From NCBI RefSeq assembly GCF_003334315.1, contig NZ_QOWR01000084.1: DNA of 12,329 bases, one strand, 5' to 3'. Positions 5,683 through 8,310 of the stretch are shown in pieces (within the stretch, counting starts at the first letter, position 1; each line of letters starts with the position of its first letter). This DNA is from Escherichia coli. GTDB lineage: Bacteria > Pseudomonadota > Gammaproteobacteria > Enterobacterales > Enterobacteriaceae. Below the pieces are notes generated by a model, which saw nothing but the letters and a program-made list of their open reading frames with translations, searched no databases and was not told the DNA's origin. Position numbers and translations under genes: made by a program.

Positions 5683-8310
5683 TTATTCTTCTTCTGGCTC
5701 GTCGTCAACGTCCACTTCCGGAGCGATTTCATCGTCCCCTTCCGCGGCACTGCCGTCGATGGTATCCAGATCTTCCTCGTCAACCGGTTCAGCAACACGT
5801 TGCAGACCCACTACGTTTTCATCTTCCGCAGTACGGATGAGGATCACGCCCTGGGTGTTACGGCCCACGATGCTGATTTCCGAAACGCGAGTACGTACCA
5901 GCGTACCGGCATCGGTGATCATCATGATCTGGTCGCAGTCATCTACCTGTACCGCGCCAACAACTAAACCGTTACGTTCGGTAACCTTGATGGAGATAAC
6001 CCCTTTCGTCGCACGCGACTTGGTTGGGTATTCCGCCACTGCGGTACGTTTACCGTAACCGTTTTGCGTTGCGGTGAGGATTGCGCCATCGCCACGAGGC
6101 ACGATCAGAGAGACGACTTTATCGCCTTCACCTAAGCGAATACCGCGAACACCGGTGGTGTTGCAGCCCATCGCACGGACAGAAGACTCTTTAAAGCGCA
6201 CCACTTTACCTTCAGCGGAGAACAGCATTACTTCGTCTTCGCCGCTGGTCAGGTCAACGCCGATCAGCTCATCGCCGTCAACCAGTTTGATCGCCACTTT
6301 ACCGGCGGTACGCAGACGGTTGAACTCGGTGAGGACAGTTTTCTTCACGGTACCGTTAGCGGTCGCCATGAAGACTTTCACGCCTTCTTCAAACTCGGTC
6401 ACTGGCAGGATCGCAGTGATACGTTCGTCCTGCTCCAGCGGCAGCAGGTTGACGATCGGACGACCGCGCGCGCCACGAGTGGCTTCCGGCAACTGATAAA
6501 CTTTCATCGAATAGACGCGACCACGGCTGGAGAAGCACAGAATATGGTCGTGAGTGTTCGCCACCAGCAGTCGGTCGATAAAGTCTTCTTCTTTAATACG
6601 TGCGGCAGATTTACCTTTCCCGCCACGACGCTGCGCTTCGTATTCAGAAAGCGGCTGATACTTAACGTAGCCCTGGTGAGAGAGCGTCACGACCACATCT
6701 TCCTGGGTGATCAGATCTTCCAGGTTGATGTCTGCGCTGTTGGCGGTGATTTCAGTACGACGTTTGTCACCGAACTGTTCACGAACCAGCTCCAGCTCTT
6801 CACGGATCACTTCCATCAGACGATCGGCGCTACCAAGAATACGCAACAGTTCCGCGATCTGATCCAGCAGCTCTTTGTATTCGTCGAGCAGTTTTTCGTG
6901 CTCAAGACCGGTCAGTTTCTGCAAACGCAGATCCAGAATCGCCTGAGCTTGCTGTTCGGTCAGGTAGTACAGACCATCACGCACGCCGAACTCTGGCTCC
7001 AGCCATTCCGGACGCGCAGCATCGTCGCCAGCACGTTCGAGCATCGCGGCAACGTTGCCCAGCTGCCACGGATTAGCAACCAGCGCAGTTTTCGCTTCTG
7101 CAGGCGTCGGCGCATGACGGATCAGTTCGATGATCGGGTCGATGTTCGCCAGCGCCACGGCTAATGCTTCAAGGATATGAGCACGATCGCGAGCTTTACG
7201 CAGTTCGAAAATAGTACGACGGGTCACCACTTCACGGCGGTGACGAACAAACGCCGCGATGATGTCTTTCAGGTTCATGATCTTCGGCTGACCATGGTGC
7301 AATGCCACCATGTTGATACCGAAAGAAACCTGCAACTGGGTCTGGGAGTAGAGGTTGTTGAGCACAACTTCACCGACCGCATCGCGTTTCACTTCAATCA
7401 CGATGCGCATACCGTCTTTGTCAGACTCGTCACGCAGCGCGCTGATGCCTTCCACGCGTTTTTCTTTTACCAGTTCCGCAATCTTCTCGATCAGGCGCGC
7501 TTTGTTTACCTGATACGGAATTTCGTGGACGATAATGGTTTCACGACCGGTTTTGGCGTCAACTTCCACTTCTGCGCGAGCGCGGATATACACCTTGCCG
7601 CGACCGGTACGGTAAGCTTCTTCAATACCGCGACGACCGTTAATGATTGCCGCCGTCGGGAAGTCCGGCCCCGGGATGTGTTCCATCAGCCCTTCAATGC
7701 TGATGTCTTCATCATCAATATACGCCAGACAACCGTTGATGACTTCCGTCAGGTTGTGCGGCGGGATGTTGGTTGCCATACCTACGGCGATACCGGAAGA
7801 ACCGTTCACCAGCAGGTTAGGAATTTTGGTTGGCATGACGTCCGGAATTTTTTCCGTGCCGTCATAGTTATCAACGAAATCGACCGTCTCTTTTTCGAGA
7901 TCGGCCATCAGTTCATGGGCAATTTTCGCCAGACGGATTTCCGTATAACGCATTGCCGCCGCAGAGTCGCCGTCGATAGAACCGAAGTTACCCTGACCGT
8001 CTACCAGCATATAACGCAGCGAGAATGGCTGCGCCATGCGGACGATCGTGTCATAGACCGCCGAGTCACCATGGGGATGGTATTTACCGATTACGTCACC
8101 AACGACACGGGCAGATTTTTTATAGGCTTTGTTCCAGTCATTGCCTAGTACGTTCATGGCGTAAAGTACGCGACGGTGTACCGGCTTCAGGCCATCTCGG
8201 ACATCTGGCAGCGCACGGCCAACAATGACCGACATCGCATAATCCAGATAGGAGCTCTTCAGCTCTTCCTCAATGTTGACCGGTGTAATTTCTCTCGCAA
8301 GGTCGCTCAT
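5683..8310 (-). CDS. gyrA: DNA gyrase subunit A (type IIA topoisomerase), complete, 875 aa
   Basis: Seen: 875-aa ORF with canonical GyrA N-terminus [47 protein letters not shown], quinolone-resistance-determining region [19 protein letters not shown], catalytic Tyr122 in [11 protein letters not shown], and acidic C-terminal tail ending DDEPEEE. Length and sequence match E. coli GyrA from memory. Confidence 0.99.

Follow-up and report, generated by a model that had tools for sequence, protein, structure and literature searches.

An Escherichia coli chromosomal gyrA with the K-12 reference allele and an unmutated quinolone-resistance-determining region

Results and Discussion

Both residues that anchor fluoroquinolones in E. 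coli gyrase, Ser83 and Asp87, are intact in the gene located at positions 5683-8310 of the window, by which we mean the whole stretch of 12,329 nucleotides that was analysed. This gene is almost certainly the chromosomal gyrA of E. coli in its K-12 reference allele, for which a drug-sensitive gyrase is to be expected. The finding of a wild-type quinolone-resistance-determining region (QRDR) is correct but ordinary; it was already known and brings no new biology.

Identity of the gyrA gene

The gene and the elements belonging to it are as follows.

5683-8310, minus strand: coding sequence of gyrA (DNA gyrase subunit A), 875 codons plus the stop codon TAA at 5685-5683, from the open reading frame and its translation
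7945-7947, minus strand: codon 122, TAT (Tyr), with Arg121 before it, within AAMRYTE, from a codon read
6613-6633, minus strand: GyrA box QRRGGKG, residues 560-566, inside the first PF03989 repeat (residues 538-584)
8355-8360, minus strand: TATAAT hexamer with TGT before it (8363-8361), 45 nt upstream of the ATG, read by eye
5646-5663, minus strand: terminator-like hairpin of 7 pairs (4 G-C), 20 nt past the gyrA stop, a consensus match from a pattern scan

According to the open reading frame list and the translation, the minus-strand frame of 875 amino acids is the sole long one in this interval and runs uninterrupted. The start codon ATG lies at 8310-8308, in the context ...ggttag ATG AGC GAC CTT when the minus strand is read over 7900-8400. 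By direct string comparison, 2628 of 2628 bases agree with gyrA of K-12 MG1655 (protein WP_001281242.1), and many annotated E. coli gyrA genes, that of K-12 MG1655 among them, match at 100% identity over the same length. This full-length nucleotide identity to the annotated K-12 gene settles which gene it is and in which frame it is read. These two are decisive for a codon read-out, to which a chance test is not applicable. The residue-by-residue alignment to a reference GyrA, which the original prediction had proposed as a check, gave the same picture, with all 875 residues as well as the 2628 bases identical to K-12 MG1655.

The profile searches point in the same direction. Against the NCBIfam gyrA equivalog TIGR01063 the product scores 1310 bits, above the cut-off of 877, and against NF004043 it scores 1258.6 bits, above the cut-off of 902. 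It may be asked whether the region is instead the paralogue parC, or whether the frame or the numbering is off, in which case codons 83 and 87 would not be the resistance positions. ParC does have a similar motif (HPHGDS...), and the NCBIfam parC models match the N-terminal domain of the product. However, the match to parC_Gneg reaches 580.3 bits and stays under the cut-off of 628.9, while the gyrA scores are far above their own cut-offs. In addition, the GyrA box is present, the DNA and the start codon are those of annotated K-12 gyrA, and the gene is flanked by ubiG and yfaA. A parC or wrong-frame reading is thus refuted by the K-12 identity, the flanking genes and the NCBIfam scores, and the probability left to it is negligible.

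Within the gyrA product, Pfam places the breakage-reunion domain (PF00521) at residues 32-507 with E = 8e-163, and six PF03989 repeats, or blades, at residues 538-839, corresponding to the C-terminal six-bladed beta-pinwheel. Residues 1-875 align to residues 1-875 of PDB chain 6rks_A, and the full-length E. coli GyrA structures 6rks, 6rku, 6rkv and 6rkw are matched end to end over this range. Tyr122 is the DNA-cleaving catalytic tyrosine of E. coli GyrA, and the GyrA box separates GyrA from ParC. The role of the box is in DNA wrapping and supercoiling. Judging from the identity to the biochemically characterised K-12 protein, the product would be expected to supercoil DNA negatively together with GyrB. 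Upstream of the gene, the TGT-TATAAT at 8363-8355 is a probable gyrA -10 element; a sigma-70 consensus scan gave no call for the gyrA promoter, and no -35 match was found with the TATAAT hexamer.

Codon states of the QRDR

The following codons were read on the minus strand.

7993-8112, minus strand: QRDR, codons 67-106, every residue reference, from codon arithmetic and translation
8062-8064, minus strand: codon 83, TCG (Ser), wild type, from direct read and script recount
8050-8052, minus strand: codon 87, GAC (Asp), wild type, from direct read and script recount

The first base of codon n was placed at 8310-3(n-1), and the positions were recounted by script. In the script output the QRDR begins with codon 67 (GCC, Ala, 8112-8110) and ends with codon 106 (CAG, Gln, 7995-7993), and the interval named in the original prediction, 7993-8112, proved to cover exactly codons 67-106, the classical QRDR. 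Yoshida et al. are said to have defined the QRDR as residues 67-106 in 1990.

The motif that holds Ser83 and Asp87 spans GyrA residues 78-90. Both codon assignments made earlier, TCG for Ser83 and GAC for Asp87, were borne out by the direct minus-strand read and by the script recount. The same holds for the claimed absence of S83L and D87N/G/Y, and a comparison of the whole gene with K-12 MG1655 revealed no other gyrA substitution. One C>T substitution, at 8063, would suffice to convert codon 83 into TTG (Leu, S83L), and one G>A substitution, at 8052, to convert codon 87 into AAC (Asn, D87N); GAC is likewise one point mutation away from TAC (Tyr) or GGC (Gly). The codons for Ala51, Ala67, Gly81, Asp82, Ala84, Gln106, Ala119 and Ala196 each read as the reference residue. 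Since the gene equals that of K-12 at every base, the other reported gyrA resistance positions are also in the reference state.

Allele frequencies in complete E. coli genomes

Alleles were counted with exact 33-mers covering codons 80-90, which were searched with Megablast in 5,426 complete RefSeq E. coli genomes. Because Megablast needs an exact word of 28 bases, a 33-mer match leaves no room for a mismatch at codon 83 or 87. Seven fetched QRDRs and a spread sample of QRDR identities revealed the synonymous backgrounds. The resulting counts are listed below.

Wild type, K-12 haplotype: 639 genomes
Wild type, V85 GTT: 2014 genomes
Wild type, A84 GCA + V85 GTT (O157 type): 297 genomes
S83L + D87N, K-12 haplotype: 331 genomes
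S83L + D87N, V85 GTT: 1371 genomes
S83L alone, V85 GTT: 413 genomes
Unclassified: 361 genomes (6.7%)

The wild-type state of codons 83 and 87 is common and is the majority one among complete genomes. Unmutated codons 80-90 were found in at least 2,950 of the 5,426 genomes (54%, a value that is not the natural prevalence, the collection being biased to clinical and resistant isolates), and S83L together with D87N in 1,702 (31%). The 361 unclassified genomes would comprise those with S83L on the K-12 haplotype, with D87N as the sole change, with S83A/V or D87Y/G/H, and with less common synonymous backgrounds. A reading of wild type as rare, taken from the single K-12-type 33-mer (639/5,426), was rejected, as synonymous differences break the 28-base seed. 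Most E. coli QRDRs have V85 GTT, R91 CGT and Y100 TAC, to which O157:H7 adds A84 GCA, and the K-12 QRDR haplotype (V85 GTC, R91 CGC, Y100 TAT) is a minority one, present in about 12-18% of complete genomes. Silent QRDR sites of this kind are lineage markers and can distort allele counts that depend on an exact seed.

The fetched QRDRs provided in-frame mutant examples with S83L, S83L+D87N, D87N (DH5alpha) and S83V+D87Y+V103I. Among the comparator strains, EcPF40 and strain 222 carry S83L+D87N, 30COLEC carries S83L and AH25 carries S83V+D87Y. As a separate observation in the genome collection, one gyrA copy with the S83L+D87N 33-mer lies on a plasmid-typed record, and in a few genomes gyrA occurs at two places; a mislabelled replicon, misassembly or a real duplication could account for these records.

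Genomic surroundings and the ends of the window

Around gyrA, the window contains the following genes and insertion-sequence (IS) ends.

1-75 (entered also as 1-76): terminal 75 nt of IS186/IS421, the reverse complement of which begins CATAAGCGCTAACTTAAGGGTTG
3202 and below, minus strand: yfaS'
3226-3849, minus strand: yfaT
3846-5534, minus strand: yfaA
8457-9179, plus strand: ubiG
9307 onward, minus strand: yfaL'
12253/12255-12329: end of an ISEc27-like IS3-family element, inserted in yfaL, the gene of an autotransporter adhesin, ~805 nt after the gene start

Positions 77-12254 align colinearly with K-12 MG1655 (99.88% identity, 15 SNPs, zero gaps), and the gene order yfaS'-yfaT-yfaA-gyrA-ubiG-yfaL' is the expected chromosomal setting. 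Thirteen of the SNPs fall in yfaS' (83-2331) and two in yfaL (10174 and 10546), while gyrA, ubiG, yfaA, yfaT and the intergenic regions contain none within 77-12254. Besides gyrA, no quinolone-resistance determinant is present in the window (parC, parE, gyrB, plasmid qnr and efflux regulators are absent), and no Rfam family was detected over the whole window at gathering thresholds.

On the left side, IS186 sits in the alpha-2-macroglobulin pseudogene yfaS, which is truncated after about 1077 codons. The same IS186/yfaS junction, in the same orientation, occurs in E. coli ES3, and PI12 has an insertion at the same site in the opposite orientation, suggesting that this site in yfaS may be an insertion hot spot. 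On the right side, the ISEc27-like end is identical at 77 of 77 positions to copies on K. pneumoniae IncC plasmids, whereas the IS2-type copies of complete E. coli genomes reach only 86-93% identity. An assignment of this end to IS2 was rejected on the basis of this difference, the 100% match being to an ISEc27-family K. pneumoniae plasmid copy. Not one of the 5,426 complete E. coli genomes contains the yfaL/ISEc27-like junction. Because both ends of the 12.3-kb window stop inside IS repeats, the window probably corresponds to a complete contig of a short-read assembly and not to an arbitrary slice of the chromosome.

Near-isogenic relatives

Among complete genomes, that of strain ES3, which originates from frog-farm sediment in China, matches the whole window best. 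Over 1-12254, including the same IS186 insertion in yfaS, ES3 is identical except at two bases, namely 8063 (coding C>T, S83L) and 8052 (G>A, D87N), and at both of these the window has the drug-sensitive state. The gyrA allele with S83L+D87N (WP_001281225.1) is carried by E. coli ES3 and BY63. For BY63, a position-by-position comparison is unusable past window position ~1905, where an indel in yfaS intervenes; its yfaL contains an IS3-family element with a canonical IS2-like end. Strain PI12, a pig isolate from Cuba, shows a single base difference, at 3678, across 53-12254, and its GyrA is the wild-type protein WP_001281242.1. The comparisons with ES3 and PI12 therefore identify the window as the susceptible form of a haplotype that is also known in a resistant form.

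Together, the window and ES3 constitute a near-isogenic natural pair of susceptible and resistant type, with 2 differences in 12.2 kb, both in resistance codons. This pair illustrates the narrow action of selection and could serve as a control pair for fitness and MIC. With regard to the direction of change, the parsimonious order, and one far more likely than reversion, is that the wild type is ancestral and that ES3 was derived by two selected forward mutations: PI12 has the same haplotype with wild-type gyrA, and the allele is the K-12 reference. In the opposite order, the window strain would have recovered a wild-type QRDR, by reversion or recombination, from an ES3-type ancestor with S83L/D87N. 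The IS186 insertion shared by the window and ES3, and their difference at only two QRDR bases over 12,254, are compatible with such a history, but we regard this order as very improbable; if true, it would represent a natural loss of target-site resistance.

The same relatives bear on the question of whether the wild-type call could be a consensus artefact, arising from a mixed sample or from collapsed susceptible and S83L/D87N reads of one lineage. Both window ends lie in IS repeats, as would be expected of a short-read contig, and ES3, otherwise identical over 12,254 bases, has S83L+D87N, which means that the two variants would be separable at two bases only. However, the window contains zero ambiguity codes and no other sign of a mixture, and the complete genome of PI12, which has the same haplotype (1 SNP in 12.2 kb), carries the wild-type allele. 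Because a complete genome carries it, the wild-type form of this haplotype is a genotype that does occur, and an artefact of this kind is hardly to be expected. In a consensus contig, which the window may be, mutant cells that make up a minority of the population would stay hidden. The preferred reading is thus a genuine wild-type QRDR.

Drug action and predicted phenotype

In mechanistic terms, the gyrA product is the A subunit of DNA gyrase, with an N-terminal breakage-reunion domain that contains Tyr122 and a C-terminal six-bladed beta-pinwheel, whose GyrA box is expected to wrap DNA for negative supercoiling. Fluoroquinolones insert into the gyrase-cleaved DNA gate, where the C3/C4 keto-acid of the drug chelates Mg2+, and the waters of this Mg2+ are hydrogen-bonded to Ser83 and Asp87, giving a water-metal ion bridge. 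In E. coli gyrase, Ser83 and Asp87 are both anchors of the bridge, which has a positioning role; when either anchor is lost, drug action is weaker, and the common mutations are S83L, D87N and D87Y (PMC9917921). Here, Ser83 and Asp87 are intact and the remaining residues are reference, with no other residue changed; therefore, the gyrase should be fully drug-sensitive. No feature of the window speaks against this reading.

This expectation is in line with compiled clinical data, in which gyrA was mutated in 194 of 195 ciprofloxacin-resistant E. coli (99%) and S83L was present in 191 of the 195 (PMC5400412). S83L is the usual first resistance step, and single gyrA mutations increase the ciprofloxacin MIC 10-20 fold more than changes in parC, acrR or marR (PMC5400412). 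Judging from the literature, a reference gyrA genotype would give a drug-sensitive gyrase, and clinical-level resistance of a cell with intact Ser83 and Asp87 is unlikely. The original prediction had called the strain fluoroquinolone-susceptible as far as gyrA goes, and within that limit it is supported by the K-12 allele and by the 194 mutated genes among 195 resistant isolates (PMC5400412).

The prediction from gyrA covers the target only, and the whole-cell phenotype depends also on loci outside the window. A strain with wild-type gyrA could still show reduced fluoroquinolone susceptibility or resistance by way of such loci, the candidates being qnr, aac(6')-Ib-cr, qepA, oqxAB, efflux mutations in marR/acrR/soxR, gyrB and parC/parE. 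Plasmid and efflux mechanisms alone usually cause low-level MIC rises only. The window comprises yfaS', yfaT, yfaA, gyrA, ubiG and yfaL' only, and the candidate loci lie elsewhere; in addition, the ISEc27-like right end, which equals copies on multidrug-type Klebsiella IncC plasmids, is a weak hint of contact with the mobile-element pool. However, the 194 mutated gyrA genes among 195 resistant E. coli (PMC5400412) mean that full clinical resistance is rarely reached while gyrA is wild type, and we consider this explanation unlikely for the present strain. A drug-sensitive target remains the preferred reading, and with the reference gyrA allele, high-level fluoroquinolone resistance is very unlikely. 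The value of this result is that of routine genotype-to-phenotype annotation.

Comparison with known systems

The window protein and the paralogous quinolone target ParC (topoisomerase IV subunit A) have in common the N-terminal DNA_topoisoIV fold and a Ser/acidic pair by which the drug bridge is anchored in both. In contrast, ParC is without the GyrA box, and the window protein stays under the parC model cut-offs.

The closest known system is K-12 MG1655 gyrA, represented by the structures 6RKS/6RKW, 1AB4 and 3NUH, which has the same 2628 nt and 875 residues and the same flanking genes and intergenic regions. K-12 MG1655 differs in being without the two IS insertions of the window and in the 15 SNPs of the flanks. 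The gyrA96 allele of DH5alpha (D87N) has the same K-12 synonymous background across the QRDR, but its codon 87 is AAC, compared with GAC in the window, a difference at 8052. Because codon 87 is GAC and not AAC, the window is not from a gyrA96 cloning strain, and the reference gyrA allele shows the background of the strain to be neither gyrA96 nor of the ST131-H30 type.
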